Assembly (NCBI GenBank): GCA_977020255.1
Contig: CDROCS010002559.1
Coordinates: 248,001 to 312,000 of the forward strand
DNA length: 64,000 nt
Reading direction: 5' to 3'
Source: Obrimoposthia wandeli
Lineage: Eukaryota
Position numbers and translations under genes: made by a program. Below are positions 17,065 through 63,261 of this stretch, piece by piece (position 1 is the stretch's first letter; each line of letters opens with the position of its first letter). The notes under the pieces are model-generated. The model was not told the origin of the DNA, did not search any database, and worked only from the letters and a program-made list of their open reading frames with translations.

Positions 17065-18560
17065 TGTTGGGAATGAGAAAATGTTTGATTGTTGTGTTAG
17101 GGTTGTTTTGGGGAGATGTTAATTGATTGTTCCCTTAATTAAGGGGCGATTGGGGGAATTATTGCAATGCACTTTGGCATTTAACAGCGGCAGTCTTTTG
17201 TGCACTCAGAGACACATGGCTGGCGGAGAGACGGATCCACTGCAACTACCGGATTCTCCAGTGCAGTTTGCACAAATCAATCCAATATCCCTCTCTCCTT
17301 TGAGTCAATGCGACCGTAGCCTCGTTATCTCTACCAGCACTACCCACTCTGCTGCTCTGACCGATCCATGCAGTATATGTGTGTGCACGCTACACCGATT
17401 CTCCATCAACGGCATGGATCAATACTTCCACTCTTCCCTTATTTGACACCTATATATAAAGGAAAGCGTAGTCTGACAAAAACCCAAACAAAAATTGATC
17501 CACATAAATTTTGAAACAAGTTTTTGAAATTATGCCATTACTTTTTGATTGAAATTTGTTTTACGAATTTAATTTTAACCCAGTGGATATTAGAAACCAT
17601 CAAACAATTATACTTCGATTGGAATTCAGATTAACATTTTTGAATTATTAACAAATTGGTGAGCCCGACCCAAAACACAGGTCATATTTACATTTGATTT
17701 AAGATTTTACTTTTCCTTTGATTTTGTGAGAACAGTTTATATTTGTTGAGGGATTGAAAATTTATTTTGCATTTTTAACTATAGTTTGCTTATATATTGT
17801 ATATTTTTATTTATTTTACGATTAATTTTGACATTTTTAAATTTTCCTATAGTTGAGGTGTTTGCAGCTTCGCGCATAAGCCTCGTAAATTTAAAATACT
17901 AAATAGTTGAGGTGTTTGCAGCTTTGCGCACAAGCCTCGTAAGTTTAAAATACTAAATACTTGAGGTGTTTGAAGCTTTGCGCACAAGCCTCGTAAGTTT
18001 AAAATACTAAATAGTTGAGGTGTTTGCAGCTTTGCTCACAAGCCTCGTAAGTTTAAAATACTAAATAGTTGAGGTGTTTGAAGCTTTGCGCACAAGCCTC
18101 GTAAGATTAAACATAATTTTGTTTTCTGAAACATAGTCGAGTTCTATTCTCTAATTTTCTTTTATAATTTGAGTTGTGTTGGTCACTTTAATTGTAAAAT
18201 TAATAAAAAATAATTTATCGGTTTTCGGAGTTCTGTTCACATAAAGGCTAAACACTGGCTGTTGTCGGATAGAGTTTTGAACACTGACATATTTATTAAA
18301 AAGTAATCAACAAACGAAGCACAACTCAAATTTTAACATTTTCCTTCAAACTGCTTTACCAATAAAGATTCGTTTTTGAGAACTATAAATTGGAGTGGAT
18401 TTATCTATTAGAGGCGTAATTGTAAAATAAAAAACTATAAAGATAATAAAAATTTAAAAGAATTATATATATATATTTTTGTATAAAAAATAAAATTGAT
18501 CAAAAATTGGAAATTTGTTCGCAAATTGTCTTGTTTCCCAAGTTACGTCGAGTGCTATCA
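17065..18560 (+). mobile_element. LTR-like element related to the solo LTR at 36731
   Basis: The first ~130 bp are clearly similar to 36731 onward (TGTTG.GAATGAGAAA ... CCCTTAATTA ... ATGCACTTTGGCATTT). Candidate 3' end ...CTATCA is followed by TATA, matching the left flank TATA; the 3' boundary is uncertain. Confidence 0.55.
17849..18110. repeat. 54-bp tandem repeat, ~5 copies
   Basis: Unit ATAGTTGAGGTGTTTGCAGCTTTGCGCACAAGCCTCGTAAGTTTAAAATACTAA starting at 17849, 17903, 17957, 18011 and 18065. Confidence 0.95.
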
Positions 18561-18959
18561 TATAAAGACTATATACTGGTTGGCGGTGGTAGTGCTCAAA
18601 GTGATAAGGGACAGAGATTTTTGAGAGAAATTTTTGAGTCTTGATATTGTACTCTAAATTAAAAACAACATAAAATCAAATAAAACTTCGGATAGATAAA
18701 TTTTCTCCAGAGATTTTCAAAGAAAGTATTTTTGATATTATTAAGAGAACTTGATTTTGAGATTGACCAAATAACTTTTACGAATATCATCGAAATATTT
18801 TTAGTTTCAGTACGCATTACACATTTATCATTTGTCACAATATTTGTTTTTGAAACTTTAAAATAAATTAAAACAACACAAACCCAAAGAACTATCACAA
18901 AAAACAAACACACAAAATAAATAAACAAAAACGTAGCGCTAGCCTTCACTGGAGACGAA

Positions 18960-20290
18960 TTCAAACAAGATTAGTTTGGACAGACTCCAGTGAAAAAACG
19001 ATTCAAAGACCCAAATCACAAATCAGTCTTGCAACAAATAACGATTTACTTACACAAACTTCCTCACTCTCAGAACATCTAAACCTAACATTAACTTCAG
19101 ATACAGAGAGTTTACCTTCACCACAAACATCTGACTCAGATAGTTCGTCAGAGATAACAGAAGCAGTGGCCGTACCAGAACCACATATTATACAGATAAA
19201 CAACAAACAAATAATCAATCAACCTCAAATAATAGCTGCACATAAGTTAAATGTTCCATTAGACGCTTTCAATGGCGATAAATCTTCACTACCTGAATTT
19301 TTAAATAGGTTTGATTCATTTGCTCAGTCATTTGAATGGACTAATGTAGAGAAAATTAGGGTTTTTCCGGCGTATTTAAAGGGCACTGCCTTGACAATTT
19401 ATAGAGGATTAAATAATGAACAAAAATACACATGGGACCATTTGGTTCAGAATTTTCAAAATATGATTTTAGGAGCACAATCAGAACAAAATTACCTTAA
19501 CCAATTTAGGCAACGTGAGCAACATATGGGAGAACCCACAAATATCTTTGCAGTTGAATTACGAAGATAAGCCTTAAAATCATTTCCCGGAATTGAGGAA
19601 ACCTTAAGAGAACGCTTACTACTACATCAGTTCCTATATGGACTAAACGATAAAATCAAAAATCACCCAGCACTACTAGAAGTAGAAAATTTTCAACAGG
19701 CTGTAAATAAAGTTCAACTTGTAGAAACCCGCTTAAATATGTTGCAACAAACAGAAGTTTCAGCAATGACTCTTGAAAAAATACAACGACCATCAACACC
19801 ACAAAATAGCAACCAAACTGAAAACTTTAACCCAAACACACAATTTTATTACCAAAACCAACAACAATATAGACCACCGACCAATAACTTTAATAGAAAT
19901 CAAATAAATAGAAACTATACAGACTCACAATTTACACAAAGACCTTACCAGAAATGCACAAATTGTGGACTGCAAGGTCACACAATAGAAAATTATCGGA
20001 AAATAACTAATAATAAATTCTGTAGATTTTGTAAAAAAGATAATCATAACATTGAGACTTGTCAAAAATTGTTATATAGACAAAATAATAATGTAAGACC
20101 CCAAAATTATAATTTCAATAATCCAAATAATAATTTCAGAAGTCCATATAACAATTTCAATAACCAGAATAATCAAGCTAAATATTTTAATGCTAATACA
20201 AAATTTTGTAAAATATGCAATATGAAAAACCACAACACTGACGAATGTGGTAAACTAAATACAGTAATGAATCAATTTAGTAACACCTGA
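18960..20290 (+). pseudogene. Gypsy Gag (capsid plus three CCHC knuckles)
   Basis: LDAFNGDKSSLPEFLNRF...WTNVEKIRVFPAYLKGTA...TWDHL; knuckles CTNCGLQGH, CRFCKKDNH...C, CKICNMKNH...C. One in-frame stop at 19568-19570; start approximate. Confidence 0.85.
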
Positions 20291-20699
20291 ATAAAACAAC
20301 AACAACAACCACAAATTCAAAAGTCAGTGCAGTTTAACAATCAAAATCAACAATTTGCTTACAAAAACCCAATACATACTATAGAAAACACTGATATAAC
20401 CCAGGAAACTGAAGAAGTCTCACTATTAAGATTAAGACAACAAAAGATAGATAAACGTTACAAAGAAACACAACAACAATATCAGGATGATGGCCAAAAT
20501 ACAAATGGTTCAAACGCACAGTCAGAATTTGGAGACATGTTTAGAAACGGTTGCCTGACATTAAAACACACAAATATGAAAATAAACCAAAATACTCAAA
20601 CACAAAACACACAGTCAAAAATTAAAAATAGAAAGCGAAAGTCACCAAAAAAGCGAAAAATAAAAACTATTAAAAATACATACTGTTCTAACAAAAACA

Positions 20700-22613
20700 T
20701 ACAAAAACTATGGAAATTAATTCAATTAATATTTACAATATGTATAATTATGAATATAATAAAACCTATAAATGCTCTTGAAGCATATGATTGCTCAAAA
20801 TATAGTATCCAAAATAAATACTCCTTAATGGATTTACAACAATGCGCCGACGCAGACCCAAACGAAGTAAAAGTTAAAACCACTAAGTTATTCCACGTAT
20901 ATCAGGAAACAGATTTTATAAACACCGAAGTTTTTGAGTGTAGGGTACACGTAGAAACATTCATAACATATTGCGGACAACACAGCCATAATTCGATTGT
21001 CAAACCTGCACTAGGAAAAATACCAATAATTGTCGACGCACTAAATTGTAAGGACGCTTTTGCATCAGGAGAACTAAGAATAGATAGATAAATTAAAGGA
21101 CGAGCAGTAAAAAATAAAATAATACAACAAATGATTACAGTAGTAGGAACAATAAAATCTGACGGTGCATGTACAACAGGTACATACGTCGTGATGGGAG
21201 TCAAACAAAGTGGCTTAGTAGTTATAAAATACTTTGAAGTGGAACTAAGAACGTTCAAGGCAACATTTGACCCATCTACAAATAATATGGTAACTTTGCC
21301 ATTTTGCGAAGCTAATATATAGGTCATTGCAATACAGGATCCTCAATTTTAAATTAGAAGGTAAAAACAGACCAATGCAAATTAATACTCCTTAAATCTG
21401 AAAGTTTTCAAATAATTCAAGGTCAAAGATTTAAAGATGACCCAGAACTTGATCAAAGAGTTCCAAAAGATATACATAAAAAATATAGGTCAAGAAAAAT
21501 TCAAAAAACATCAACCCAAACTATTTTAATGTCAACAGAACAAGGTTCTGGAATGCGATTTATTAAAAAGAAAGAGGAATCCCGATGTGGACATTCTATT
21601 TATACAACAAACTATAAAGGAATACATTTAAGTAAAGAAAAAATATATACGCAAAAACCACACCATCAAAGTTTGACATAAAAAATTATGATTATTTTAA
21701 TAATAAATTAGATTATTTTTATCATAAAGGCTTAATGACAATTGAGTCAATTTATAGAGAGACAATAATGAATGATTGTAAATTAAACCAAGAAATTTTA
21801 AAAACAAAATTGGCCATAATTGCTACAAATCCAGAATTAATAACACCATTATTACCGTTAGCGGATGGTACTTTTGGAAGAGTAATGGGAGAAGTGTTAT
21901 ACACTTAACAATGTAAAAAAGTAATAGTTAACATAAGAAATCATAATAAATGTACTAAAGAATTACCAATTTCATATATAAATCATTCGTTATTCGTTGA
22001 ACCAATTACCAGAATAATACTTTTTAAGACATTTAGCATAAAAAACATAAATTGCTCAAATATAATGGCACCTCACTATCGAATTTCTAGGGATATTTGG
22101 ATATCACTCCCAAGAAGAGACATAGTAGCTCAACCATTAAAGTTACAGTTAACCAACCTCAATAATGACATATAAATAAAATCAGACAATGACATAAATA
22201 CAAAAGGCATATACATACAAGAAGACATAGATAAATTAAGAAAATAAATTTTATTTCCTCAAATTAGATCACGAATTTTAACACAAATTATTGAAAGATC
22301 AGTACCAGACGGAATTGGCCGTCCTGATAACGATTTATTACTTTCTCCAAATCATTTTATAAAAGCTACTAAAAATACAATGTCAAAAATATGGGGAAAA
22401 TTTTTAATTTTTGGTCAAGCATTTTCTGGACTTGTAGGAATATATGCACTACTAATATGCTTTAAAATCCTTTTGAGTCAAATTTTATCTACATATTATA
22501 TTTATAAAGTTGGTGGATTGACATGGAAACTAATTTTGAGATGTTTTCCATTTTTGGCATAATTTCTTATATTTAACCATCATCAAAATACAGCAAATGC
22601 ATTATCGAACGAA
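20700..22613 (+). pseudogene. Envelope glycoprotein, chuvirus (Monjiviricetes)-like class III fusion protein
   Basis: Hydrophobic signal ...IIKPINA followed by LEAYDC...SL...C, FECRVHVETFITYCGQHSH, GACTTGTY, GEVLY.xQCKKV, ELPISY...FVEPITRII, and a C-terminal hydrophobic region WGKFLIFGQAFSGLVGIY. Stops and frameshifts present. Confidence 0.8.
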
Positions 22614-25593
22614 ATGCAAGAAACAAATTTACAAAACCTAGTAGACAATAAAAATAAAGATAATACAGAATCTGCACAATATCCCGATTTAGAAAAATAT
22701 AAAGAAGAAATAATAATTCAAAAATCAACTGCACCAACAATATATACTATAAATCAAATGGATAATGATAGACGACCTTATGTAAAAGTTGAAATAAATG
22801 AGTACAAATTAAAAGCTTTAATTGACACAGGATCAAGCGTAACAGTCTTGGACGAGTCTTTCTTAAAACCACACTAAAAATGACTACTTCTCAGAGATAA
22901 TAGTCAAGTAACAGCAGCAAACGGTCAACCCATAAATATTATTGGTAAATTAGATTGCATTTTTAAAATAGGAGATAAATTTATAAAAATACCTACTAGA
23001 ATAATGAAAAATTGTCCATGCCAGATAATAATTGGAATAGATACATTAAGGAAATTAGGAAACAATTTTCATTTCGACTTCGAGAAAAATTAAATTAAAG
23101 ACATTTAAAGATCAAACGCTAAAAGCGAATAAGAATTAGAAATAAAAGGAGACATCATCCTTCAACCTAGAACAGAAACAATATTACAACTATAAACTAA
23201 CATAATTACAGAAAAATACATTATTCGAATCTTATAAATATCAACAAGAAACACTAAATTACGTTCTACCAAATATAATTTGTAAAATAAAAAATAATAC
23301 AATACAAATCAAAATATTAAATGCAGACATAAACGAGATTCATCTAAAAGTAGGAACGCGCCTTGGAAAAATAAGCGTTATAGAAAATATAGAATTAATT
23401 AATAATGAAAAATAGAAGACAATTCCACTGTAAAATTTGAAAATATTAAATTAAATGATTGAGAAATCAAAACTAAAATCATTAATAGAAACATACGACG
23501 TAATTTTTGCAAAAAATGAATATGACCTTGGACGAACAGATTTAATTAAACATAACCTTCCTTTAACTATTAGTACGGCAATTAAACAACGACCTTATCG
23601 TGTCCCATATGCCTACAGAGATGAAGCTCAAAGACAAATAAAGGGAATGTTAGAAAATAAAATAATAAGAAGAAGTTTTTCAGCTTGGACATCTCCAGTC
23701 GTTTTAGTAAAAAAGAAAGATGGTTCGTTAAGATTCTGCGTAGATTACCGAAAATTAAATGAGGTTACACATAAAGATACATATCCACTCCCAAGAATCG
23801 AGGAAATCTTGGATAAACTAAAAAATGCAAAAATATTTACAATCTTAGCTCTACAAAGTGGATATTGGCAAATAGAGATAGACGAATCAGACAAAGATAA
23901 AACAGCATTCTCAACAGGCGAATGACTGTACGAATTTAATGTTCTACCTTTTGGACTAACAGGTGCTACAGCAACATTTCAGAGATGCAAGAGCCACATT
24001 CTAATGGACGCAGATCACGTCATGGTATATATCGATGACATACTAATTTTCTCAAAAAACTTTGAGGAACATTGAAAAGATTTAGAGAATGTATTTCTTA
24101 GACTAAAAATAGCAGGTTTAAAATTAAAACCAAATTATCTAGGTCATGCAGTGTCTGCAAAAGGAATTCAACCAGATGAAAGTAATATAGAAAATATTTT
24201 AAAAAATCCGATCCCAAAAACAGTAAAAATATACAAGAATTTTTGGGACTCGCAGAATATTATCGTAGATTTATCAGAAACTTTGCACAAATAGCGACAC
24301 CGTTAAATAAACTCATTAAAAAGGATGAAAAATTTGAATGGGAAACAGAACAACAAGAATCATACGAATACTTAAAACAATAATTAATTGAAAACCTATA
24401 CTTAGATATCCTAATTTTAATAACTCATTTTTGGTAATGACTGACGCAAGTGGATACGCGTTATGAGCAGTACTAGGACAACAAGATAATAACGTAAAAG
24501 ATCATGTGATAGCTTACACAAGCAGAGGTCTTACAAAACACGAAATAAATTATTCAACTATAGAAAGAGAATGCCTAGCTATTTGTTTTGCTATGGAACA
24601 TTTTAAACATTACTTATTAGGTCGAAAAGTTTACGTTTATACTGATCAAAGACCCTTACAGTGGCTACTAAATCATAAAGATACAACATCTAGATTAATG
24701 AGATGGGCATTAATTCTTTAAAAATATGATATCGAGATAAAATATAGAAAAGGTAAATCAAACGCTAACGCAGATTGTCTATCTCGAATAAGAGAAGACA
24801 TAAACACAATGACTTTAGATGATACTGAATTAAATCTTTTCACAATAATTAAAGCAAAATATGATGAAAAAGTAATCACAGATATTCAATGCAAAGATAC
24901 TGAAATACAACAAATAATTAAGTACATCACCATCAATCAAGTTCCAACAGATGAAAAATTAAGAAAACATTTGAAAATTCATAAATCTCGTTATAAATTC
25001 AGTAACAATATTTTACATTATTTAAACGATAAAAATCTGTACTCACTAGTTATTCCTAAAGAAATACAATGTCAATTACTCCTTTAATATCATAACGGAG
25101 CTTTAGGAGGAAATCTTTCAACAAAAAAGACACATTCGAGATTAAACTTAAAATTAGAGAAAAAATAAAACTAGCATTCGAAAAAGCTAAATTATTTGTA
25201 AAAAACATACAAGAAAATTACAAAGAATATTATGATGGAAGAACTAAGCCATCAAATATAAAAATCGGAAGTAAAGTAATGATTCACAATCCACAAATCA
25301 ATGTAGGATTATCACACAAATTATCAAAACCATACAAGGGACCATATACAGTCATTAGTACCAACGTAACTAACATAACAGCTAAACTCGACAATGAACC
25401 AAAATCACAAGAAATAAGAACACATATAAACAGATGTCGAGAAATACCTGAGGAAAATATAAAATTAAAAAGTCACAAATATAACTTCAATAATACTGTT
25501 CTACAAATGTTAACTATAAAAAACTCACAAAAACAAAACAAGTCTATTTTGAGTCATCAAACTAGAAATACAATAAAAATGTCAATAAAATAA
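22614..25593 (+). pseudogene. Gypsy pol (PR, RT, RNase H, IN with catalytic core deleted)
   Basis: ALIDTGS; SPVVLVKKKDGSLRFCVDYRKLN; SGYWQI; YIDD; TDASG; YSTIERECLA; NADCLSR. IN jumps at ~25150 from the zinc-finger region to IREKIKLAFEK and the GPY region. Confidence 0.92.
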
Positions 25594-25605
25594 ATATGTA
25601 AAATA

Positions 25606-26758
25606 ATGATGTTATTAGTAATATATGTTGCAGTAAAAAGTAACCTAATAAAAGTAAACGCTATAAACCTGAATGAAAATCAATTAATAGTAAAAGACGA
25701 AATAAATAGATACGACTCATCAACACATCTCATAAAAATTTTGGACTAATTACAATAATACCTGAAATCACATCAATAAAGTTGAAAATATCACTCTTTA
25801 CAAAAAAATTAGGAAGAATTCAAATAATACAATCTGAAAAAAATCAAATCATAAATATTTACCAAATCGAATCAAAAAATTATATAATACCATTTTTAAG
25901 AACAGAAACACAATACAAAATAAGAGTAAAGTCGAATTTAAAGAATATAACACTCTATGAAAGAATTATAGAAACTCACTTATACTTAGCTTCAATATTA
26001 AAAACGACAGAAAAATATATATCAAAACATCAAATCATGATAGATTGGGAATTTCAACTTAAAATATATAACTTAGATAAAGCCCTCATTAGAATTAGAT
26101 ATAGAGGACATAATGCTCATTTTTGGAAAGACGCAGAAAAACAATTAGAAAAATCACAAATCAGAACAAATATAACTATAAAAAATATAAGATATCCAGA
26201 ACAAATAATTATGAATAATAGAGAATGTGTAATTACTAACAAACCAATAATGTATAGACAATGGGACAACAATTTGAGACTTGTAGAAATCTAACAAACT
26301 TAAGGATTTTAGGAAATAAAATATCCAAATTATATCAACCTACGATTTTTTGTGGCCAGTGGTCAGTAATTACAATTAGGAAATGTATCAAAGAAACAAC
26401 CATAAAACAAATACCACATACTACAACCTTCACAACAAAGGCTTATGAAATTACAAATTAAAGTAATATCACAGAAAATAAAACAATTAACAAAAAATTA
26501 AAACAACAGAAACAATACCCTATAAATCATTTAATGAAAGTCTAAAAATACACTTTAGTAAACAAAAATACTCAAAAAATATGAATAACAAGGAAAATTT
26601 TATAACAATCATAATAATTGAAATCTTTACATTAATCATAAAAATAACATGGAAGATCATTAAAGTAAAAAATAACACAATTTTCAAAAAACATTATCGG
26701 AATAAATATTGTGAACCACCTGGCCCATTTATAATATCCATCATACCTAGCTCTTCAA
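25606..26758 (+). pseudogene. Extra 3' ORF: signal-like segment, fibronectin type III-like repeats, Thr-rich stalk, putative TM
   Basis: MMLLVIYVAV...KVNA; NYIIPFLRTETQYKIRVKS and IMIDWEF...IRIRYRG...FWKD match FN3 strand patterns; TTTFTT stalk; hydrophobic FITIIIIEIFTLII. Frameshifted. Confidence 0.5.
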
Positions 26759-27510
26759 ACCTCATGAGGTCATGACCCCCCCTATGCTCAGGAAAAATGT
26801 CTTTGTCTTGAAAGACACACATACAGTAGGGGGATGTAAGTCTTTCAGGACAAATACATTTTGAGCATACCCCCCTTGAGCACAGTTTAAGGTCACGATG
26901 AGGACATGTCCTCATGAGGTCAACTTAAGGTCACGGTGAGGACAAGATGTAGGTCATGACCTCATGAGGTCAAGTCAAGTTAAGGTCATGACGTCATGAG
27001 GACAATGTACTTTAAGGTCAAGTTAAGGTCATGACGTCATGAGGACAATGTCATTTAAGGTCACGCTGAGGTCATAAGATGACTCATCGATGACTCATAT
27101 TCTATTTTTAGTAACATTCTTTAAAATTATATATCTTTTTATCTAAAGGTGGTATTAACACCAATTCAATAAAATACATATCGTGTGTGTGTGTGTTTTC
27201 TAATTTATTTAAATTAAATTATCTACTTATAAAATAAAGTATTATATAATTTGATAAATTTATTTAAACTAAATTCAATTAAATTAAACTATCTACTTAT
27301 AAAATAAAGTATTATATAATTTGATAATCATGTTTAAACGTTCCTGCATCTATCTAACAAAGATAGTCACGAACTGCATCTATATTGCAAATACTTGCAT
27401 CTTTATGTAATCAATAGTAACAAGTATTACATTTATTCTTATACAAGCATGTATATATATGTGTGAGTGTCTAACAAAGACAGTTACGTACTGCATCTAT
27501 ATTGCAATGT
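26759..27510. repeat. Polinton left TIR (outer ~150 bp missing)
   Basis: Reverse complement of ~44965-45728; rich in TCATGA and TGACGTCA palindromes. Confidence 0.9.
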
Positions 27511-27512
27511 AA

Positions 27513-27935
27513 TTACAAAGTTTTTGGTCGGTTAACTAAAAAGTTTAGTTTTTTACCAAGATAGGCACTAGGATCCTTTTCAAATACTTTTGTAAGTTTA
27601 TCTAATTTTACAAAAATATCAAGCATACCATCCCCTTTTTGTATACCATCTCCTTTTTGCAATCCATTCCCATTTTGTATACCTCTCATGTAATCCACAT
27701 TCTTTTTGTGCTTTATAGCTTTTTTATCAACTCCTCCAAACCATCTACCTAAAAGATTTGCTGCCATCATATGAATACCCAAACCCTCCATGATTTTCTT
27801 TTTACTCATAGTCTTTTTAACCTTAGTCTTTTTCGACTTTAATGATTTAGTAGGTTTTTTAGTCATTTTCATAATAAATATTAAAGTATCACTATTGTTT
27901 ATATATATAAAATGAAATAATACAAATAAAGACAC
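27513..27935 (-). CDS. Basic Polinton protein with repeated QxGxG motifs (candidate virion core protein)
   Basis: Lys-rich N-terminus; QNGNG, QKGDG, QKGDG. Confidence 0.5.
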   Translation of the reverse strand: MSLFVLFHFIYINNSDTLIFIMKMTKKPTKSLKSKKTKVKKTMSKKKIMEGLGIHMMAANLLGRWFGGVDKKAIKHKKNVDYMRGIQNGNGLQKGDGIQKGDGMLDIFVKLDKLTKVFEKDPSAYLGKKLNFLVNRPKTL

Positions 27936-27944
27936 AAAAATTAA

Positions 27945-28334
27945 TTAGTCAACTCTAACAGCATCAATTATTTTCCATATCGGAGTTTCCAATCCACTGG
28001 GTCCGATCTTGCATCCTTGAATTCTGATTGAGAGAATCCATTCTAGTTTAGGAGGAGGTACTTCGTATATTGTTCCATTCTCATGCTTGAAAGTGGCATT
28101 CGATCCTTTGATTACAAATTTGTTTTCCTGAAGCGTATAGTTGATTCCGAATTGAGTCAAGATAATATTGATTCTCTCTTTATCCACAGAAGTCAAATTT
28201 GATATTTCAAAATCAAATTTAAGCGGCTCGATGTTGACGGGAAAAATAAAATTATAGTTATGAGCTTTCTTCAAAAAGTGCATCTCATATCCATAATATG
28301 TATGCATAGGTTGATATAGCTTTTCAAAATTCAT
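27945..28334 (-). CDS. Polinton hypothetical protein (possible OB-fold ssDNA-binding protein)
   Basis: Intact 129-aa ORF with a beta-rich C-terminus (ILSIRIQG...PIWKI); functional call is weak. Confidence 0.45.
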   Translation of the reverse strand: MNFEKLYQPMHTYYGYEMHFLKKAHNYNFIFPVNIEPLKFDFEISNLTSVDKERINIILTQFGINYTLQENKFVIKGSNATFKHENGTIYEVPPPKLEWILSIRIQGCKIGPSGLETPIWKIIDAVRVD

Positions 28335-28407
28335 ATTGACAATTATAAATTGAAATATTCAATTGTTTATCCTCTAAAGCTCCCTTCTAATTGGTCGATA
28401 TTCTTGT

Positions 28408-28635
28408 TTATGAAAATCGTTTAGTATTAGTCATATCCTTAAAGGGCTCACGTTCTTCGGTTACGCGCGTAGGACTTGTTATTGTTTGACTTGATAGATT
28501 AATATTTTCTCCCTGATTATTTCTATTATAATTCATATTATAATATAAATTACTACCGGAACCTATATATGTACTAGCTCTACTTTCAATATTTTCATTA
28601 TTTTGATTATCCATTTTCAATAAAATCATTATCAA
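28408..28635 (-). CDS. Small Asn/Ser-rich Polinton ORF
   Basis: 75-aa ORF divergent from the IAP gene; probably frameshifted at its 3' end. Confidence 0.35.
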   Translation of the reverse strand: MIMILLKMDNQNNENIESRASTYIGSGSNLYYNMNYNRNNQGENINLSSQTITSPTRVTEEREPFKDMTNTKRFS

Positions 28636-28767
28636 AATATTGTTTATACTGTTTTATTCTTAAGACAAAGACATCACATGACTATTCTTGTAAAAACCAA
28701 GAATGTGGTCTAAAAATAGATTTTCACTTACTATATAAGCTAGTTAATTTCATCATTTAATTTTGTT

Positions 28768-29769
28768 ATGACTACTAAATTTATTGCATATTATGTTTCA
28801 GAAAACGGAGAACCCACCATTAGACGACGGCGTTTTGATAAGATTTCAAGAATAAATGAAAATATGATATATGAAGAAAGAAGATTAGAATCGTTACAAG
28901 CAAAGTTTACTGGTTTAGCCAATAATAGAGCTTTAGCAAAAGCAGGATTTTACAAGCACGATGATTCGAAAGATAATGTAAAGTTTATTTACTGTCACGG
29001 AGAAATATCGGGATGGGAGTACTATCTGAAACCAATGAAGCGGCATCAGCTATTTTTCCCAAGATGCCCGTTTGTTTTGAAAATGAATGTTTCAAACGTA
29101 CCAATAATTGATTCCAGCACCGCACAAATTGATTTTGATTCAACTCCAATGGATAAAGTAGTTATTGTACTCAATAATAATTCTAATGATATTGAAATAC
29201 CTACATTATCGATTTTCGATCATGTATATATTTGGAATGATTCTTATCGATGTTGTTTCTGTCAGAAAGTAGTACCCCGGCTTGAGTTTATTGATACTAT
29301 GCCCGAAAGAATCTTTCATACTCGATATTGTAAAGCATCTAGTATGGGAATCAAGAACGGATGTATTGTTGAATATCATATTAGTAATGATGAAATTTAT
29401 GCTCAAATGGAAACTCGTCAAATAGTTTTGCTGAAACGTGATTACAGTCATGATAGAATCAAAGCCGTTTTAGTTAATAGGTTTAAAACATTCGGTAACA
29501 AATATGATTCTATATATGAGTTTATAACGGATTTAAGATCTTTAGAAATAAAATCTGAACCAAAACATCGTATAAATTATCTCGAGTACCTCTTACCAAA
29601 TCCCGAATGTGTTGTTTGCATGAGCGATGCGATTTCCGCGGCATTTTTACCATGCGGTCACTTAAACACGTGTATTAAATATTCAGATCGTTTTATTACA
29701 TGTCCATATTGCAAGACAATTATCATTAGAAGAGTAAGAAATATTAGAGTTCATAGCATAGGCAATTAA
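28768..29769 (+). CDS. Inhibitor of apoptosis (BIR plus RING)
   Basis: RRLES...LAKAGFY...VKFIYC...W...P...H....PRCPF (BIR); second degenerate CCFC...H...C; C-terminal CVVC...FLPCGH..TC...CPYC (RING). Confidence 0.88.
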   Translation: MTTKFIAYYVSENGEPTIRRRRFDKISRINENMIYEERRLESLQAKFTGLANNRALAKAGFYKHDDSKDNVKFIYCHGEISGWEYYLKPMKRHQLFFPRCPFVLKMNVSNVPIIDSSTAQIDFDSTPMDKVVIVLNNNSNDIEIPTLSIFDHVYIWNDSYRCCFCQKVVPRLEFIDTMPERIFHTRYCKASSMGIKNGCIVEYHISNDEIYAQMETRQIVLLKRDYSHDRIKAVLVNRFKTFGNKYDSIYEFITDLRSLEIKSEPKHRINYLEYLLPNPECVVCMSDAISAAFLPCGHLNTCIKYSDRFITCPYCKTIIIRRVRNIRVHSIGN

Positions 29770-29841
29770 ACAAAGACATGCAATCTAAATATAAATGTTC
29801 AAATAGTATAAATAGAAGAAATTAGTTTATAATAATCAGAA

Positions 29842-30365
29842 ATGCTACTTCACAATATCAAATTAGTGAATATTAATTACAAGGGAATGGTTGTAAGTAA
29901 CATTCAACACTTACCATTTAGGACTTCGAAGCCTCATCAGTATCGACTCAAGTGGGAAGGTTACACTATTATCATTTTCAAATCTGGTAATTTATTTTTA
30001 CATTTATATATAATTATAATTTAGGGACATGCAGAATAATGGGTTGCACAACAGTGCTGGATGAAAGCAGTCTTCCTTTTGATATAAAAATCGAAAGAAT
30101 CCAATCAATCAGTCTCAGCAGCAATCTAGAAACATCAATAAACCTAAACAAGATGAGCAAGTGTATGGGTTCGGAAGCTGTTTACGAGCCAGAAATCTTC
30201 CCGGGACTTCGATACGTCAAATACAATCCCCTATGCGTGAACATTTTTGCGAGCGGAAAGATTATGATACTTGGTGTTAAATCTTTAAATTATGAGTATC
30301 TGATTGAATGTATTTTGTTTAATATAGATCTTCACACTTGTGTTATTTATTTATTTATTTCCTAA
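29842..30365 (+). CDS. TATA-box binding protein-like, spliced (intron 29987-30024)
   Basis: Repeat 1 TIIIFKSG|TCRIMG is restored by a 38-nt GT-AG intron; repeat 2 YEPEIFPGLRY...NIFASGKIMILGVKS matches the TBP signature. Confidence 0.85.
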
Positions 30366-30515
30366 ACAAAGACAACCAAATAGTCGTAATGTTGCTAAAA
30401 ATAGATTTCTCTTAGAGACAAAGACATCACATGTCATTACTTGCAAATAGTATTAATGTTGTCTAAAATAGAATTTTCTGGGTTATAAACGATATTTGAT
30501 TTGCTTTATCATAAA

Positions 30516-30759
30516 ATGGATGAAATTATTGAATGTAAAGAGGTTCAGCATGCATTAAATGATCTTGGCTCAGTTATTCTCAATGCTTAAATTAGGAAAA
30601 ATAATCACGAGTAATATTTATATGTAGTTTATTTAACTCTTTAGGTTACGTCATCAAATACATTTACATGAGATGTTAAGTACAATGGAAAGGTTGAATA
30701 ATACTCCAATCACATCATATGATGAAACTGATGCTCCAATGAAATCAAACCTCGTTTAG
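30516..30759 (+). pseudogene. Small Polinton ORF with a putative 34-nt intron (30611-30644)
   Basis: ATG after a repeated promoter-like motif; phase-2 GT-AG splice keeps the frame; one internal stop. Confidence 0.35.
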
Positions 30760-30792
30760 TATATAAGAGTAAATTGACTCTGAATTGATAAA

Positions 30793-31140
30793 ATGGAGAA
30801 AATCACATCAGCAACATCATCACTACCAGCAGCAACATCATCAGCAACATCATCACTGGCAACATCATCGCCAGCAACATCATCAGTAACATCATCACTG
30901 GCAGCAACAACAACAGTTATAAGAAGAGAAGAAACTATTGATGAAGTGATGATAGAAGAAGAAATTATTATAGATCCAATTATTGAAGATAAGAGACGGA
31001 TAGATTTTTTAAATGCTTTGGCTTTTATGGAACCCATAATAGCTCATGCTTCCAATATGGAAATGAACCATATGACCCATCTTTTTGATAGTTTGTTTAG
31101 TGCTAGATTTACTCAACATAATGTAGAAAAATTAAACTAA
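30793..31140 (+). CDS. Ser/Thr/Ala-rich low-complexity then acidic protein
   Basis: 115-aa ORF in the operon-like plus-strand run; built from GCAACATCATCA repeats. Confidence 0.5.
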   Translation: MEKITSATSSLPAATSSATSSLATSSPATSSVTSSLAATTTVIRREETIDEVMIEEEIIIDPIIEDKRRIDFLNALAFMEPIIAHASNMEMNHMTHLFDSLFSARFTQHNVEKLN

Positions 31141-31145
31141 CCGCG

Positions 31146-31562
31146 ATGAGTGAGATTTTAGTAAATCAATTATATATTGGTAATTATAGAGATGGGTTTG
31201 ATGAAACTAATCTGTTGAACTCCAATTTCACTCATGTAATCAATACATCTATACTGGATAAAATATCTTATAAGAAATTAAAATATACTTCTGTCTTTGT
31301 AAACTCAAAATTAGGAGAAACAATAATGAAGTATTATAAACAGACTAATAATATAATTAAAGAAACTATCGAAAATGGTGATAAGATTTTAGTATGTGGT
31401 CATTATGGTAGTTTACATGCTGCTTGTATTGTTATTGCATATTTATCTCATTCGATGGGTGTTACTGCTGCTTCCAATCTTGTTAAATCTAAACGGACTA
31501 TTGCTGCTCCTAATGAAGCTATGCTTCATCAAATACGTATTTTTAATCATTATCATGTGTAA
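31146..31562 (+). CDS. Dual-specificity phosphatase fold, catalytically degenerate
   Basis: LYIGNY...FTHVIN...KILV...CIVIAYL...VKSKR...PNE...QI. The P-loop reads VCGHYGSLH in place of VHCxxGxSR. Confidence 0.82.
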   Translation: MSEILVNQLYIGNYRDGFDETNLLNSNFTHVINTSILDKISYKKLKYTSVFVNSKLGETIMKYYKQTNNIIKETIENGDKILVCGHYGSLHAACIVIAYLSHSMGVTAASNLVKSKRTIAAPNEAMLHQIRIFNHYHV

Positions 31563-31582
31563 ATTTTATTCGTCTTTATCTT

Positions 31583-31699
31583 TAATCAGTGTTTTTATTA
31601 ATCAGTATCTTTATTAGTTAGTGTCTTTATTAGTCAGTGTCTTTATTAGTCAGTGTCTTTATTAGTTAGTGTCTTTATTAGTCAGTGTATTTATTAACC
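31583..31699. repeat. 16-bp tandem repeat, ~7 copies
   Basis: Unit TCTTTATTAGTCAGTG. Confidence 0.85.
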
Positions 31700-31755
31700 A
31701 ATCAGATTTCAGATGTATAGTATATAAGCAGATTACTTTTTACTGCTTCTTCATT

Positions 31756-32049
31756 ATGTCCACTCCAAATCATTTCAAGCAAGATGTTGACAAGGCGGTG
31801 AAGAGCTTCATCTCGAAGAATGTCATAGAAGAAGATGTCCTGAAACTCATTGATGTCTCAAATCTACCCCTGGAAGAACACGTAAGAAGAATGGTGCATA
31901 TAATTGATGACAAGGCAGTCAATCTTCTCATTCTGGGATACAATCAGAAGAAAGAACGTGCAAAGAAAGAAGAGAAAAGGAGCTTTTTCTACGAAAAGAG
32001 TTTTTTATTGTTTGTTGCTGGATGTATAATAATAAAATATTTTAAATAG
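31756..32049 (+). CDS. Small protein with a C-terminal hydrophobic tail anchor
   Basis: Likely ATG at 31756 downstream of a TATA box; ends KSFLLFVAGCIIIKYFK. Confidence 0.55.
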   Translation: MSTPNHFKQDVDKAVKSFISKNVIEEDVLKLIDVSNLPLEEHVRRMVHIIDDKAVNLLILGYNQKKERAKKEEKRSFFYEKSFLLFVAGCIIIKYFK

Positions 32050-32092
32050 TTTTGTCTTATAAACATTATCCCGATAATCTAATATTTTTAAT

Positions 32093-32743
32093 ATGAACTT
32101 TAAAAATAATTCAGTTTTTCAGATTGTAGGTCCTAGTGGTAGTGGGAAAACACATTTTGTATGTAAATTACTGCAAAATAATAAATACTTTACCTTTAAG
32201 TTTAATAAGATATACTGGCATCAGGGAGGAGATGGAGAAGCTGGTTTAACCAGTAAAGAGTTTAAGAAAATCAAAAATATAAAAGTCATTAATGGATTCG
32301 ATGATAATTGGTCTGAGCGATTACAACGACATGATGTTATTGTTATTGATGATTTATATCAAGAAGCAAATAAAGAGAGTGATTTCAATAATTTATTCAC
32401 TAAAATAGCACGACATCGGGAAGTAACTGTTGATTTCATCACACAAAATCTATTTCATTAAGGAGGGAACCATAGAACTCATAATTTAAATGTACATTAC
32501 CTTGTTCTCTTCAAGAATCCACGTGATCAGACGGTTGTTGATTTTGTTTCAAGACAAGCTTATCCAAATAATAGAAAGTTCCTAATTGATTCATTTCAAG
32601 ATGCAACTACTATTCCTCATGGATACATTTTTATTGATTTTACTCAAGATTGTCCCGATGACTTTAGAGTTAGAACTGATGTATTCAATCCATCAGGAAT
32701 TACCGTCTATAAACAAACAAAGAAACCAGTTTCTCGAAGATGA
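32093..32743 (+). pseudogene. A32/FtsK-like packaging ATPase
   Basis: GPSGSGKT, VIVIDDL, ARHR...ITQNLF, FKNPRD, HGYIFID. One in-frame stop at 32459-32461. Confidence 0.92.
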
Positions 32744-33129
32744 ATTTTAAAAAGGAAACTGTTAAACCCGAAGTTAAAAAATTGATTAAATCAGTTTTAA
32801 GTGCAAGGAAAATGGTTGCTCAAAAATCCAATAAGAAAAGAACTGTTGTTAAAAAATCTAGGAGTATTGCCTATTTCAATTCTCTCATGCGTGCACCTGC
32901 TATTCGCCGCCTAGCTATTCTTAAATCATTCCCTACTTTTGTAATTGATGATTTACTTAATATGATACAGAAAATAGTTTCTGGTAAAATAATTGTCAAG
33001 GCTAATATGAATCGGCATAAGAAACCTCTACTTGCTTTGTTTCACGCCAAAACACGGATCGGTAAACGTAAGTTGCTTTATAAGCAAAGTGGTGGATTTT
33101 TAGGATTTCTCGTACCAATTATTAGCTGA
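32740..33129 (+). CDS. Conserved basic Polinton protein (QSGGFL type)
   Basis: Basic ORF ending RKLLYKQSGGFLGFLVPII, located between ATPase and integrase. Confidence 0.6.
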   Translation: MNFKKETVKPEVKKLIKSVLSARKMVAQKSNKKRTVVKKSRSIAYFNSLMRAPAIRRLAILKSFPTFVIDDLLNMIQKIVSGKIIVKANMNRHKKPLLALFHAKTRIGKRKLLYKQSGGFLGFLVPIIS

Positions 33130-33265
33130 ATAGTTGGTGCACTTGCTAGTAGACAAATAAAACGATGATTATAAACATAAATTCGATTCAAAAATATGAA
33201 TTTATATATGGGATCACTTCCATCTATTCCTAAATTCAATATAAAAATCAAATCGTCTTGCTGTA

Positions 33266-34293
33266 ATGGAGAAAATATGGTTCGATCCAAGTCACCCCGT
33301 TGGTTACACAGGGGTTTCAAAATTAGCAAAAGAGTCAAAGAAGACAAAAAGGAAACTCAGGCGTGGTTGAGAAATCAATTAGCTTACAGCTTAAACAAAC
33401 CAATGAGACGTCGGTTCCCGACGAGATCATATAAAACGAGCGGCCCGAATGATTTATGGCAAGCAGATTTGATGGAAATGATTCCGTATGCAAGTATTAA
33501 CTACGGACATCGATATATTTTAACTTGTATTGATGTCTTTAGCAGATTCGCGCGAGCTATTCCATTAAAGTCTAAGTCTGGTATCGATGTTTTTGCCGCA
33601 AGGAAGCTTTTGATTAAAGAAATTAAACCAAGAAATTTCCAAACAGACAATGGAAAGGAGTTTTATAATAGACATGTTGGAACACTATTGAAAAAACATA
33701 ATATTAATCATTACTCAGTATTTTCCCAATATAAAGCTGCCCTAGTTGAACGTTTTAATCAAACATTGAGAGATCGATTGAAAAATTATTTCACAAAGCA
33801 GGGAAATAAGTCATGGGTCACTGTTTTACCTCAAATAATACATGCATACAATCATAGTGAACACTCATCATTAGACCGGAAAAGACCCGTTGATGTTACA
33901 GATGAGAGTGCTATGAAAATTTGGCAACGTTGTAACCAAAGTCAAGTTGTAAAGAAACCCAAGTATAAAGTTGGTGATTATGTACGTATTTCTCAAATTA
34001 GTACTACTCCTTTTATAAAGAATTTCAAAGAGAATTGGAGCGATGAAGTATTTCGTATAACTAAAATTGATAATAAACGTGTGCCGGTAATGTATTTCAT
34101 TGAGGATGAAACCAATAATGTAATCACGGGTAAATTTTATCATGAGGAATTACAAGTCTTGCCTGAGAAACCAAATGTATATAGAATCCAAGAAATTTTA
34201 GAGACAAAAGGTAGAGGAAAGCATAAACAATATCATGTTAAGTGGCATGGATATACTGAACCTAGTTGGATATTAGCTTCTCAAATAGAATGA
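33266..34293 (+). CDS. Polinton retroviral-like integrase with chromodomain
   Basis: MEKIWFDPSHPVGYTG (frameshift) ... WQADL, CIDVFSRF, QTDNGKEF, VERFNQTL, YHVKWHGY..PSW. Confidence 0.92.
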
Positions 34294-35328
34294 ACTCAAT
34301 GTATGTTGTATTACCAAGTAATGGTTCGCCATTAACTCAGCCGAATAATACTGCTAATAGTTTTAGTATTGATTATCAAAGCTCAATCAATTTACCCGGT
34401 GCTTGGGAAGCTGCTCTTACGGAAATTTCTTTCAATTACTCTCCTCTATCTATTCAAAGTGAAACTGAGATTGAATATATTACCAAACAAGAAGCTGATA
34501 AAGTAACTGATGTGACTTTACTATTTGATAAGGGTCAAATGGATTTGGCTCGTATTAAGTCAGGCGATGATTTCACAATCTATTTAAATAAAGAGAATCG
34601 AATTCAAATTATGGGAAAAGGGGATAATTTTGAAATAGTTTTTAATGATGAAATTGTTGCAGAACAATATGGATTTCCGTCTAACGTTGAAAAAGGTAAG
34701 CATGCAGTTTCGGGAATTATGGATAATCATGTCAAGTATCCGATAATTACATTCAAGATAAAAAACAGATTCACTAAACGCGAGAGGAAAATATATTCAG
34801 TTCCCAATGATTTTCTTTTTCCCGATAGCGAAAGCATGTGTAAACATTTTAAAACAGTGTTACCAAATGTATTTGAAAACTTTAAACTAGTTAATAAATT
34901 GATTCATTTCAAATTTAAATCAAATATTGTTAAAGTTGTGATGGATAAATCATTAGCCTCAATTATCGGTTTTGATGAAAATGAATTTGAAAATAAAAAT
35001 GAGGTTTTAAAAAAAAAAAAAAAAAAAAGCAAAGATTATTCCTAAAATGACTAATGCATATAATCAGATTTATATCTACACGAGTATTACCGAACAAATA
35101 TTCGTAGGAGGAAGGAAACTTCCCTTAATTAAAGCAATTTGGGTTCAACAGGAAAAGCACAAGTATGGTGATGTTATACATATTCCAATTGAAAATCCAA
35201 TGTATATTCCCGTGAGTTCTTCTTCTATAAACAATATTGAAGTTAATATACGTAATGATTCTGGAAGATTAATTACATTTGCTTACGGAGCTAAAACAAG
35301 TTTAACGGTTCATTTTCGTAAATTATGA
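34290..35328 (+). pseudogene. Minor capsid protein (penton, PX), frameshifted at a poly-A tract
   Basis: YVVLPSN...NNTANSF...LPGAWEAALTEI; C-terminal IYIYTSI...VGG...PMYIPV...IEVNIRNDSG...VHFRK. Confidence 0.85.
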
Positions 35329-35687
35329 TTGATTCAAGTATAATCGATGCGTATAGTAAACCGATGCAAGGAGGTGATTTACCTTATTTTGCGGGAAAAC
35401 AGTATGGATCAGGATGGCTGAAGGTTTTTGGTCGCTTTGCTTTCCCACTACTCAAGCGACTCGGGAAATTTATTCCTAATGTTGGATAAAAATACTTGTC
35501 TGGTGATGGGAAATTTCTTCCCACACTAAAGAATGTAGCCTTGGATCAGGTGAATGAAATTTCACCAAGTCTAGCTGAATTTTTGAAAAAGAAAACTCAA
35601 AAGGGAAGTGGTTATAAACGTAAGAAAACATCTAAAGCATCGGGTATAAACAAACGTTTGAAACTAGGTGGAACAATTTTTAAGTAA
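35325..35687 (+). pseudogene. PZ-like basic core protein
   Basis: QGG, QYGSG...FGRFAFPLLKRLG, QKGSG; one stop; ATGA/TAATG overlaps with penton and MCP. Confidence 0.6.
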
Positions 35688-36730
35688 TGAGTTGTGCTAA
35701 AACTGAATTGTGTATATTCGATAAACCTATACCTCAGGTTGTGGCTGATAGTGCTAGTTTTGAAGAAATATTTCCGACAAATACGGTTAACGGTACATCT
35801 TCTCCGGATTTAGAATTCAATATTAATGGATCCAATACTCAATATCTTGATTTGAATGATAGTTTATTTCTCGTTAAATTGAAAGTTACAAAGGAAGGAG
35901 GAGGTGATTTGGATGATGATTTGGATATCAAATCAGCTAATTACATGTTGCATACTCTTTTCAAGGATGTGATTCTCAGTCTCAATAATGTGAAAGTTGA
36001 GGGAAATAATACTAGTTACACCCATAAAGCAATGATTGAAACATTACTGAATTACGGTAATGATACGAAATTGATTAATCTTGATGCAATTGGGTTTGAT
36101 GATGATGAAAAAAGAAGAACAGCTTCGATTGCGAAATCTAAAGTATTGTCACTTTGTGGGAGTCTCCATTTGGATTTCTTTAAGCAACCAAAGTATATTT
36201 TACCCGGTGTAAGTACACATATTCGAATGAAGAGAAATCCAGTAGGTTTTAGTGTTGTTTGCGCCGATACTATTAAAACCGCAATTGAGATTACGGAAGC
36301 AAAACTGTTGGTTCGAAGAGTAAAGGTGGAACCATCTGTACTTGTTGCACATCGAATAGGGTTGGAGAAGCAAAATGCATGTTATCCTATTAGAAAAACT
36401 AATCTTGTTTCTTACGCTATCCCTACGGGGGCTCTATCTTATTACAAGGATCAGATTTTTGGTGATATGCAACTTCCAAACTTTGTTTTAATTGCTTTTC
36501 AAAAAACCTCTACCTATGGATGTGAGTCTAAAAATGAGGTTTCTCAATTTGAATACACGAATGTGAGTTCAATTAAACTTGCACGAAATATTGATTATCA
36601 AGAATCTTATACGAATGACTTTGAAATTAATGATTATGTATTTTCTTATGTGCAATCTTTAATTAGAAATCTTGGTCATTTGGATAAGGATGCTAATATT
36701 GGAATTTCAATGACTGATTTCAAGGATAAG

Positions 36731-39116: not shown

Positions 39117-39335
39117 TAAGTATACACTGTTCACATTTGTTCTCTCTCCTGATTTCGATATTAGTCAAGCTCAAATCCCTAAACAGGGAAATTTGAAAGT
39201 AGAAATCAAGTTTTCAAAAGCACTTGAACATCCTACTAATATTATAATCTATGGAGTACTCGATTCTGAGGTTCAAATTACCAAGGGAGGAACAGTACTA
39301 GTATAAACAGAATGAAAACAATAAAGAAGATATAA

Positions 39336-39686
39336 ATGAAGTAAGTCAGTTTGAATTTATTAATTAATATATATTCTAGTTCGGACGAGATAACAAAAAG
39401 CGGAAGAAAACTACTCGGTTCGCGTTTCAATGGAGTCTACAGTCTTGATCACATGCCCTCTTTGACTCGTTTAGATGGATATGTAATCAATACATATTCA
39501 TCTAATTTGCGTGGTAAACATTGGATTGCAATACATGTTAAAGAAAATGAAATCTTTGTTTTTGACCCCTTTGGGATATATTACCCTTCTAAATTAGTAT
39601 CTACAGTACTTGATTCTGGAAAGAAAGTACATTTTAGTAAGAAACATTATCAAAATGTTTTAACACAGTCATGTGGACAGTACTAG
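39336..39686 (+). pseudogene. Adenain-like cysteine protease, copy 1 (3'-truncated; intron 39341-39379)
   Basis: ATG AA|intron|T TCG gives MNSDEI; HWIAI, FDPFG, QSCGQ then stop at the duplication junction. Confidence 0.85.
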
Positions 39687-39720
39687 TATAAACAGAATGA
39701 CAACAATAAAGAAGATATAA

Positions 39721-40098
39721 ATGAAGTAAGTCAGTTTGAATTTATTAATTAATATATATTCTAGTTCGGACGAGATATCAAAAAGCGGAAGAAAACTACT
39801 CGGTTCGCGTTTCAATGGAGTCTACAGTCTTGATCACATGCCCTCTTTGACTCGTTTAGATGGATATGTAATCAATACATATTCATCTAATTTGCGTGGT
39901 GAACATTGGATTGCAATACATGTTAAAGAAAATGAAATCTTTGTTTTTGACCTCTTTGGGATATATTACCCTTCTAAATTAGTATCTACAGTACTTGATT
40001 CTGGAAAGAAAGTACATTTTAGTAAGAAACATTATCAAAATGTTTTAACACAGTCATGTGGACAACTCTATCTGCTTTGGTTAAAGCATAAACAATAG
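39721..40098 (+). CDS. Adenain-like cysteine protease, copy 2 (intron 39726-39764)
   Basis: Same structure offset by 385 bp; catalytic His, Asp and Gln/Cys present (HWIAI, FDLFG, QNVLTQSCGQ). Confidence 0.88.
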
Positions 40099-40135
40099 AT
40101 ATAAACAATATCAAATAAAATTATTGCTATAAAAA

Positions 40136-40676
40136 ATGTCTGTTTATTTTATTGATTTTGAAGCTTTTATTGATAATAATACTGAATTTGTAATAAAAGA
40201 ACTATGTATAATGGATGTGGATGTATAATAATACTGAATTTGTAATAAAAGAACTATGTATAATGGATGTGGATGCAATCTTCTATCCTAAACATTATGT
40301 TTTTAAAATGCAACCTATATGGGACATGATGAATAGAAAATCAAGAAAAATAAATAGATATCTCATTAAGCATTACTATCGACTAAAACTAGTTGATGGT
40401 AATAGTTTTTTCAAGATACAAGAAATAACTGAGGAAATAAAACGTTGTTGTGATGTATCCAAATCAATTTTCTATGTTTTGGATGAAAATAATGGAGCTA
40501 AAATAAAGACAATCAATAAATATTTTCCTGAATTTAGCTCGATAAATTACTCGAAAACATTAAAACAATTAAAACCATCAAATATCAATTGTCCATATAT
40601 TAAACATGGAGAGCATTGTGCATACAAGAAATGCTTTGCAGCTAGTTTAGATTATTTAAATATTAATGAAAAATAA
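40136..40676 (+). pseudogene. DEDD-like nuclease-family Polinton protein, frameshifted by a 52-bp duplication
   Basis: YFIDFEAF...FVIKELC...HYVFK; duplication 40173-40224/40225-40276. Removing one copy restores the frame. Confidence 0.6.
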
Positions 40677-40828
40677 ACTACTCACATCTTTCAGTAAACT
40701 ATTCTGATTAAAATGAATCTGATTAGTTTAAATAATAAATGAATCTGATTGTCTTAATACTAGCTCGAAAATAGTATATAAGCAAGCATCAATCAACAAA
40801 TAACTCTATATTATAAACGAAATTTAAA

Positions 40829-63250: not shown

Positions 63251-63261
63251 TAGTAATTGGT

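Follow-up and report, generated by a model that had tools for sequence, protein, structure and literature searches.

Can a retrotransposon carry an envelope-like gene between gag and pol, read in a single frame with both? The question is raised by a stretch of 64,000 nucleotides from Obrimoposthia wandeli (assembly GCA_977020255.1, contig CDROCS010002559.1, positions 248,001 to 312,000; hereafter the window), in which an earlier note, made from the sequence alone, had described a gypsy element at positions 18,960 to 25,593 whose fusion glycoprotein lay between Gag and protease instead of after pol. We found in this region a degraded member of a Ty3/gypsy family. The intact form of the family very probably had one frame of ~2,800 codons, which would encode Gag, an internal signal sequence (signal 1), the glycoprotein (G) with its transmembrane segment (TM), a protease (PR), a reverse transcriptase (RT), an RNase H (RH), an integrase (IN), a second signal (signal 2) and a second membrane protein (X) with its own TM, and whose product would cross the membrane of the endoplasmic reticulum (ER) in the way proposed below.

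A probable single reading frame from Gag to a second membrane protein

In the window copy, one frame (18872-21322), interrupted by single stops at 19568, 20288 and 21089, runs through Gag, signal 1 (…IIKPINA/LEAYDC) and into G for its first third. A second frame (21636-23093) takes in the C-terminal half of G together with its TM region, and then the protease. Both arrangements had been read correctly in the earlier note. The two frames differ because the window copy has private frameshifts inside G, near 21313 and 21649; others lie in pol. The Pfam profile PF24664, the Monjiviricetes fusion glycoprotein, matches both halves of G above its curated cut-off (E 1.4e-27 and 2.1e-58), which bears out the position claimed for G and the expectation of a viral glycoprotein match. 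Downstream of G, Pfam places the aspartyl protease, RVT_1 and RNase H in that order, and the reading frame extends past 25593 into X, a continuation that the earlier note does not mention, as it does not mention the integrase deletion and the shared stop described below.

Sister copies from the same genome carry the argument for a single frame. We studied 35 of them. DNA similarity to the window selected 15 of these, and the next 20 were taken for their similarity to X, three of the latter aligning at the 3' end only. Over 50 intervals of the alignment, the mean is 1.3 breaks per kb per copy, with no break fixed. No 150-nt interval is broken in every copy, and a programmed frameshift or a fixed stop at a junction is thereby rejected for the copies sampled. 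The least open intervals are still open in 14 of 32 copies (the interval holding a shared stop discussed below), 7 of 17 (spanning the window's integrase deletion) and 15 of 29. In-frame spans across the junctions are open from capsid to G in 4 of 28 copies (1,155 nt), from TM to protease in 22 of 32, from protease to RT in 16 of 32 and from the integrase C-terminus to X in 9 of 20, while a control span inside pol is open in 14 of 30. Every aligned sister is open at the positions where the window copy has its stops in Gag and at the G-protease junction. Natural frames of 907, 968 and 1,919 amino acids cover, respectively, capsid-knuckles-signal-G, signal-G-TM-protease and G-TM-PR-RT-RH-IN-signal 2-X.

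Outside the family, related proteins show the same organization in uninterrupted form. P0008 is a single open reading frame (ORF) of 2,146 amino acids with the order Gag-G-PR-RT-RH-IN, P0006 is a Gag-G-PR-PR ORF and P0009 an ORF of 4,844 amino acids. Signal 1 occurs at an equal position and with an equal pattern in these three and in a second, giant family of the same genome. The RT of the window family is 68% identical to that of P0009 and 62% to that of the giant family (52-68% for the relatives overall). The single Gag-G-PR-RT-RH-IN frame that the earlier note had suggested is thus upheld by the open frames of individual copies together with these intact relatives.

Identity and maintenance of the fusion glycoprotein

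The G ectodomain (20777..22400, forward strand, as are all features of the window copy given below) is interrupted there by stops and by the two frameshifts. By its PF24664 profile, G is of the Monjiviricetes type; the label "chuvirus-type" given to it earlier holds at the level of the class and is narrower than the evidence, because PF24664 covers the whole of Monjiviricetes. The PF24664 cluster is also the first match of G in Atlas (0.90), with the GP64 and rhabdovirus G clusters lower, and a search of the G profile against PDB sequences gave no match. Five homologues of nearly its length were found. We refer to G as a putative class III-type fusion glycoprotein.

If G were a passenger, that is, a secondary insertion or an endogenous viral fragment lodged in an ordinary gypsy element, the decay of the window copy would be the one observation in its favor. 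Variants shared among copies speak for another interpretation. They fall on third codon positions in 32 of 35 and 51 of 64 cases in G, 53 of 67 in RT and 7 of 8 in the X ectodomain, compared with about one third of singletons and 11 of 26 shared variants in the leader. The bias extends to Gag, protease and RNase H, and is absent from the spacer, the X stalk and the leader. G is under purifying selection, and since the bias is seen in shared variants and not in singletons, G is a working part of the element. It is in frame, it is present in all sisters that align over its region, and it occupies the same place in relatives merely 52-68% identical in RT. A passenger origin is hardly credible and is already contradicted by these data.

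Membrane topology and proposed mechanism

Hydrophobic peaks of the frame are confined to signal 1, the G TM, a segment following it, signal 2 and the X TM. Signal 1 (20690..20776) is predicted from a basic n-region, a hydrophobic core and a small residue at position -1. By hydropathy, 22410..22570 holds a transmembrane helix of G and, weaker, a second hydrophobic segment that has a conserved Cys besides basic residues (median hydropathy 2.22 and 1.69). Signal 2 (25594..25662) is predicted within the integrase frame.

From hydropathy, the signal-like motifs and the established behavior of signal peptides and stop-transfer segments, we propose the following model. Translation would start on Gag in the cytosol; signal 1 would bring the ribosome to the ER, where signal peptidase would cut, leaving Gag membrane-tethered via the signal remnant. 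G would enter the lumen; with its TM the chain would pass back into the cytosol, and the hydrophobic segment that follows would rest on the membrane surface. Pol would be cytosolic, tethered to the G tail and to signal 2 until freed by its own protease, and X would enter the lumen. Cleavage by signal peptidase would uncouple Pol from Gag, and Pol would therefore have to be packaged via the envelope tail or via RNA; we favor its joining the budding particle through the envelope protein, and not as a Gag-Pol fusion. G would then fuse membranes in cell-to-cell spread, X would most likely serve as an attachment protein or a surface decoy, and short separate ORFs downstream of the main frame would supply a coiled-coil protein and a DEDDh exonuclease. 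If signal-peptidase cleavage does separate Gag from Pol, packaging and the Gag:Pol ratio would be solved unlike in Ty3 or retroviruses.

The marginal second segment is the main uncertainty of this model. It might insert part-time as a TM, in which case Pol would be sent into the lumen and its level would drop against those of Gag and G. Control by a marginal TM in alphavirus polyproteins offers a comparison for insertion of this kind. The segment is a recurrent hydropathy peak in 22 frames, with a maximum of 1.82, and gB-type ectodomains have been described as flanked by two TM domains, although the internal signal may be meant there (PMC13524379, in the text seen). However, the segment contains Lys, Arg and Pro, and it falls below the 1.7 cut-off in P0006, P0008, P0009 and the giant family. 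We regard part-time insertion as quite improbable.

Several points weigh against a single functional frame with the topology proposed. Other genomic copies had been put forward earlier as the means of finding a continuous ORF, and on this the outcome was divided: among the 35 sisters no junction break is fixed, but none is open end to end, and the full frame is read from overlapping spans because no sampled copy is open throughout. A stop interrupts G in about 40% of copies. Of 31 copies, 8 share a frameshift at a mid-G homopolymer, which may be slippage or assembly error; all 8 belong to the first sample. The C-terminal part of X has no third-position bias (7 of 19). Finally, with a median of 1.69 the second hydrophobic segment may be a genuine TM, and Pol would then lie in the lumen.

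Membrane protein X and the 3' accessory ORFs

X (25663..26758) appears as a type I membrane protein, broken in the window copy and with its 3' end cut by a Polinton. It consists of a beta-rich ectodomain of ~235 amino acids, a Ser/Thr-rich stalk, a TM near 26600 and a short tail. Signal 2 ends in the same pattern as signal 1, and the stop at 25591 that precedes it in the window is open in nine of nine sisters. Signal-ectodomain-TM units also stand at the end of P0009 and of the giant family, the latter with three of them. When the final ectodomains of P0009 and of the giant family were compared by shallow profiles, no similarity to X could be detected.

No homologue of X was found among 1.84 billion representatives or among longer proteins, and X has no Pfam match above cut-off (fn3 included) and no PDB sequence match. 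Its language-model features (Atlas) point to FN3 proteins (0.85-0.89), at the level of a lead. A low-confidence structural model (mean pLDDT 42, 50-69 in the first domain; a single-sequence fold reached only 37.5) has C2 domains as best match (Z 8.6, root-mean-square deviation 3.4, 99 residues aligned), and gave no match to a viral fold library at E 0.001. FN3 domains are not among the structural matches listed for this low-confidence model, which does not count as excluding them. The ectodomain appears to be a beta-sandwich, for which FN3 and C2 are the candidates.

Before the 3' LTR, sisters have further ORFs for a coiled-coil protein and an exonuclease (L020 2865-4528, L025 1124-2960, L012 3314-4230). 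The exonuclease is an ISG20-like DEDDh enzyme (ISG20/ISG20L2; PF00929, E 4e-8) whose N-terminal half is without known match.

A stop codon shared by many copies

One stop codon (22245..22247), ~55 codons upstream of the G membrane anchor, stands out from the scattered decay. It is common to the window and 13 of 32 sisters, whereas the next commonest among 2,160 codons is found in four, and genome-wide it occurs in 549 of 1,389 exact-context matches, the window copy included. Because it lies inside G, the copies that bear it cannot make the whole polyprotein without readthrough; they would make only Gag and an anchorless G ectodomain. The stop is present in both main clades, with at least four forced changes on the G tree and six on the pol tree. 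It is not a marker of a single clade, a notion ruled out by both trees, and an editing or transition hot spot is likewise ruled out, the data being incompatible with it. The G and pol trees disagree, which indicates recombination.

Does the stop have a function? It might yield surplus Gag and a secreted G ectodomain, acting through stoichiometry or receptor interference, or permit low readthrough, so that expression would be two-tiered. The outlier status of this codon among the sisters and genome-wide is in keeping with such a role, as is its presence in both clades. In the truncated G upstream of it, variants confined to stop-bearing copies number 7 synonymous to 6 nonsynonymous, a weak synonymous excess (p 0.012 against singletons). 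Receptor blocking by free glycoproteins has been proposed for mosquito chuvirus endogenous viral elements (PMC7642597, consulted in part). Against this stands the pattern in the rest of the frame: stop-only variants are 8 synonymous to 14 nonsynonymous in Gag and 3 to 9 in Pol, compared with 24 to 13 and 19 to 17 for variants confined to open copies, so that the former look neutral in Gag and Pol and the latter do not, although the contrast is not significant (p 0.06 for Gag, 0.18 for Pol). These counts are small and blurred by the recombination that sets the two trees apart. Structure downstream of the stop is weak; G is read through in P0006, P0008 and P0009 and in most of the giant family's top matches; and a site 450 nt away is linked to the stop (r2 0.57), which fits a single origin spread by recombination. 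A functional stop is accordingly unlikely in our view, and stop-bearing copies most likely represent defective genomes with mobilisation in trans. In its fullest form, the reading would combine, in a virus-like particle built by a lineage of flatworm retroelements, two envelope-side proteins (a fusion protein ahead of Pol, an attachment or decoy protein behind integrase) made from one frame that crosses the ER twice, Pol packaged via the envelope tail, and a co-replicating stop form (~40% of copies) giving surplus Gag or a secreted G ectodomain; taken together, these elements are possible, if rather doubtful.

The family and the window copy

A 23-base pattern in G counts at least 1,389 copies of the family in the assembly, a figure to be taken as an order of magnitude only because the assembly may hold both haplotypes. 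An RT-motif pattern (109 matches) marks a single sub-lineage and was left out of the count of copies. Many sisters are 88-97% identical at the DNA level (search of the own genome; 19 of 9,131 candidates scored). LTR pairs, found in five of nine sister pairs examined and partially in a sixth, are 92-98% identical. Two sisters measure ~15 kb between LTR ends. The frame of the family spans ~8.5 kb, and a 4-bp target-site duplication was readable in one of eight sisters examined. The internal regions of eight sisters (L011, L013, L016, L018, L019, L022, L024 and L026) are near-identical; their LTRs share the first bases and diverge inside, which suggests LTR exchange or fast turnover.

Sisters have the LTRs with TG…CA ends, primer-binding site and short target duplication of Ty3/gypsy elements (Metaviridae), together with the order PR-RT-RH-IN and a Ty3-like RT. 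The RT-RH-IN frame of a sister finds Ty3 Gag-Pol as best PDB match (E 5e-105), followed by caulimovirus (8e-64) and foamy virus (6e-37), in a library without a BEL reference. Gag has no Pfam Gag match, its Arc2 capsid match being weak (E 1.1), and its capsid matches the Gag of P0006, of P0008 and of the giant family at 30-32% identity (E 1e-16 to 1e-25).

The window copy begins with a 5' LTR remnant (17065..17653) that has a TG start, as in sisters, and a CA end. It is shorter than the 1.1-1.6 kb LTRs of sisters, and pieces of it are 96-98% identical to the LTR of L018. Immediately 3' lies a primer-binding-site-like motif (TGG…, 17657..17669), found in the same place in four of eight sisters examined, followed by a leader with a 54-nt tandem repeat (family D1, 17836..18111). 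Gag (19230..20290) comprises a capsid domain and three CCHC-type knuckles, the first degenerate in the window; its start codon, present in most sisters, is missing. Pfam recognizes the aspartyl protease (DTG) at 22770..23090 and a broken RT (YIDD) and RNase H at 23455..24790. The integrase remnants (25060..25470) are the zinc-finger start and the C-terminal domain, the core having been lost in a deletion of ~665 nt at 25154; a sister has complete H2C2 and rve domains (Pfam). The 3' end is replaced by the Polinton at 26759-45728, and the 3' ORFs and 3' LTR were looked for in the remaining window and not found. A fragment at 63585-63998 on the reverse strand, reported in the earlier note as a sister piece at 63.6-64 kb, does belong to the same family, being an integrase-core piece 85-87% identical to sisters.

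Other elements of the window and the assembly

The Polinton/Maverick inserted at the element's 3' end (26759-45728) has terminal inverted repeats of ~500 nt (87%) and ORFs for a BIR-RING inhibitor of apoptosis, a TBP-like protein, a dual-specificity phosphatase, a packaging ATPase, an integrase and a protein-primed PolB; its capsid and protease ORFs were recognised by eye. The window further contains, on the reverse strand, a decayed BEL/Pao-type element with DUF1759 and an integrase zinc finger (45792-48271), a DUF4371 ORF that is probably a hAT-type DNA transposon remnant (61941-62633), and a GC-rich AAA ATPase exon or gene (7576-8244; PF00004, E 4e-18). Long tandem repeats lie at 37534-38959, 39292-40064, 51949-52453 and 63255-63610, with periods of ~355, 385, 80 and 78 nt.

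A multi-copy COX1 of the assembly reads AAA as Asn and ATA as Ile, the flatworm/echinoderm mitochondrial code, and a 91% identical copy of it shares a contig with the RT motif of the window family. Taken with the Burro-like relatives and the reported lack of env elements in echinoderms (PMC13524379), this makes a flatworm the likely host. Also present in the assembly are heme-copper oxidase genes of bacteria in large number, many nuclear copies of a divergent COX1, and another animal COX1 that follows the invertebrate code (L065), so that it mixes host, microbes and possibly prey.

Comparison with known systems

A layout with G between Gag and protease is already published, in the planarian Burro elements (PMC6431247) and in elements described as GAG-ENV-POL (PMC13524379). 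In Burro, an env that matches mononegavirus fusion glycoproteins sits between gag and pol in the same frame, which was called the first case (PMC6431247). As in Burro and GYPSM1, env is in frame between gag and protease within one polyprotein, and the window family further resembles Burro in a Gag with two or three CCHC knuckles, in copy number (thousands in Burro) and in its probable flatworm host (PMC6431247). The two differ in size, the window family having ~15 kb and ~2,800 amino acids against >30 kb and 4,873-5,140 amino acids in Burro (PMC6431247). To its size, with an ORF of ~5,000 amino acids, Burro joins Bcl-2, ubiquitin-like, BIR and ankyrin domains, and the window family, with no Pfam match to Bcl-2, BIR, ankyrin or MATH, lies outside that description. 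G relatives 38-42% identical adjoin a Bcl-2-like domain (P0011, E 0.00096, below cut-off) or an ankyrin domain (P0009), as in Burro. The review text on Burro, with which our comparison is by description only, is silent on a membrane protein after integrase, on an exonuclease ORF and on a topology model (PMC6431247).

The giant family of the same genome (L066-L083) is probably Burro-like. It has the order Gag-G-PR-PR-RT-RH-IN with open frames of >4,000 amino acids, Gag to RNase H lying in one frame of 3,206 amino acids. It carries a pair of dual-specificity phosphatase domains, three signal-led membrane units follow the integrase, and ubiquitin-like and Bcl-2-like segments, seen by eye and without Pfam match, stand before G.

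Certain nematode endogenous retroviruses reportedly have one continuous gag-env-pro-pol ORF, and differ from the window family in host. They are cited elsewhere as having a flipped env/pol order and an RNA-virus glycoprotein captured by a metavirus (Sacco et al. 2022, as cited in PMC13524379). GAG-ENV-POL elements with a gB-type env are known from Platyhelminthes (nine listed), Nematoda and Bryozoa, env elements being reported absent from echinoderms (Chary & Hayashi, PMC13524379, as far as seen). These errantiviruses share with the window family a Ty3/gypsy pol and an env placed between gag and pol; their env is chuvirus-like and gB-type, and that of the window family putatively so. That paper treats GAG, ENV and POL as ORFs; the words "polyprotein", "in-frame", "fused" and "single ORF" are absent from its text, and no second membrane protein appears in the parts consulted, although its figures and sequences may show one (PMC13524379). 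Anakin carries a chuvirus-like glycoprotein in an LTR element, as here, but belongs to BEL/Pao and to mosquito hosts (PMC7642597). The rotifer elements Juno and Vesta have in ORF3 a DEDDy exonuclease, RNase D-like (PMC5408684), whereas the 3' DEDD exonuclease of the window family is of the DEDDh type.

In the literature seen, we found no published description of the post-integrase membrane protein or of the stop allele; the protein may be shown in the original Burro paper or in the figures and sequence files of PMC13524379. Within these bounds, the second membrane protein, the exonuclease ORF, the common stop allele and the compact form appear to be additions to the published layout. The polyprotein with env between gag and pol was noted for the giant Burro and, in the sources consulted, never dissected, and a compact family reduces the layout to its essentials. 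A retrotransposon with a two-protein entry system is suggested by the second membrane protein that follows the integrase in frame, a topology that recurs in P0009 and in the giant family. The frequent stop allele would represent a natural population of defective or helper genomes. As far as sequence and the published descriptions allow a comparison, the window family would work like Burro, differs from it in size and domains, and appears to fit the description of GAG-ENV-POL errantiviruses.

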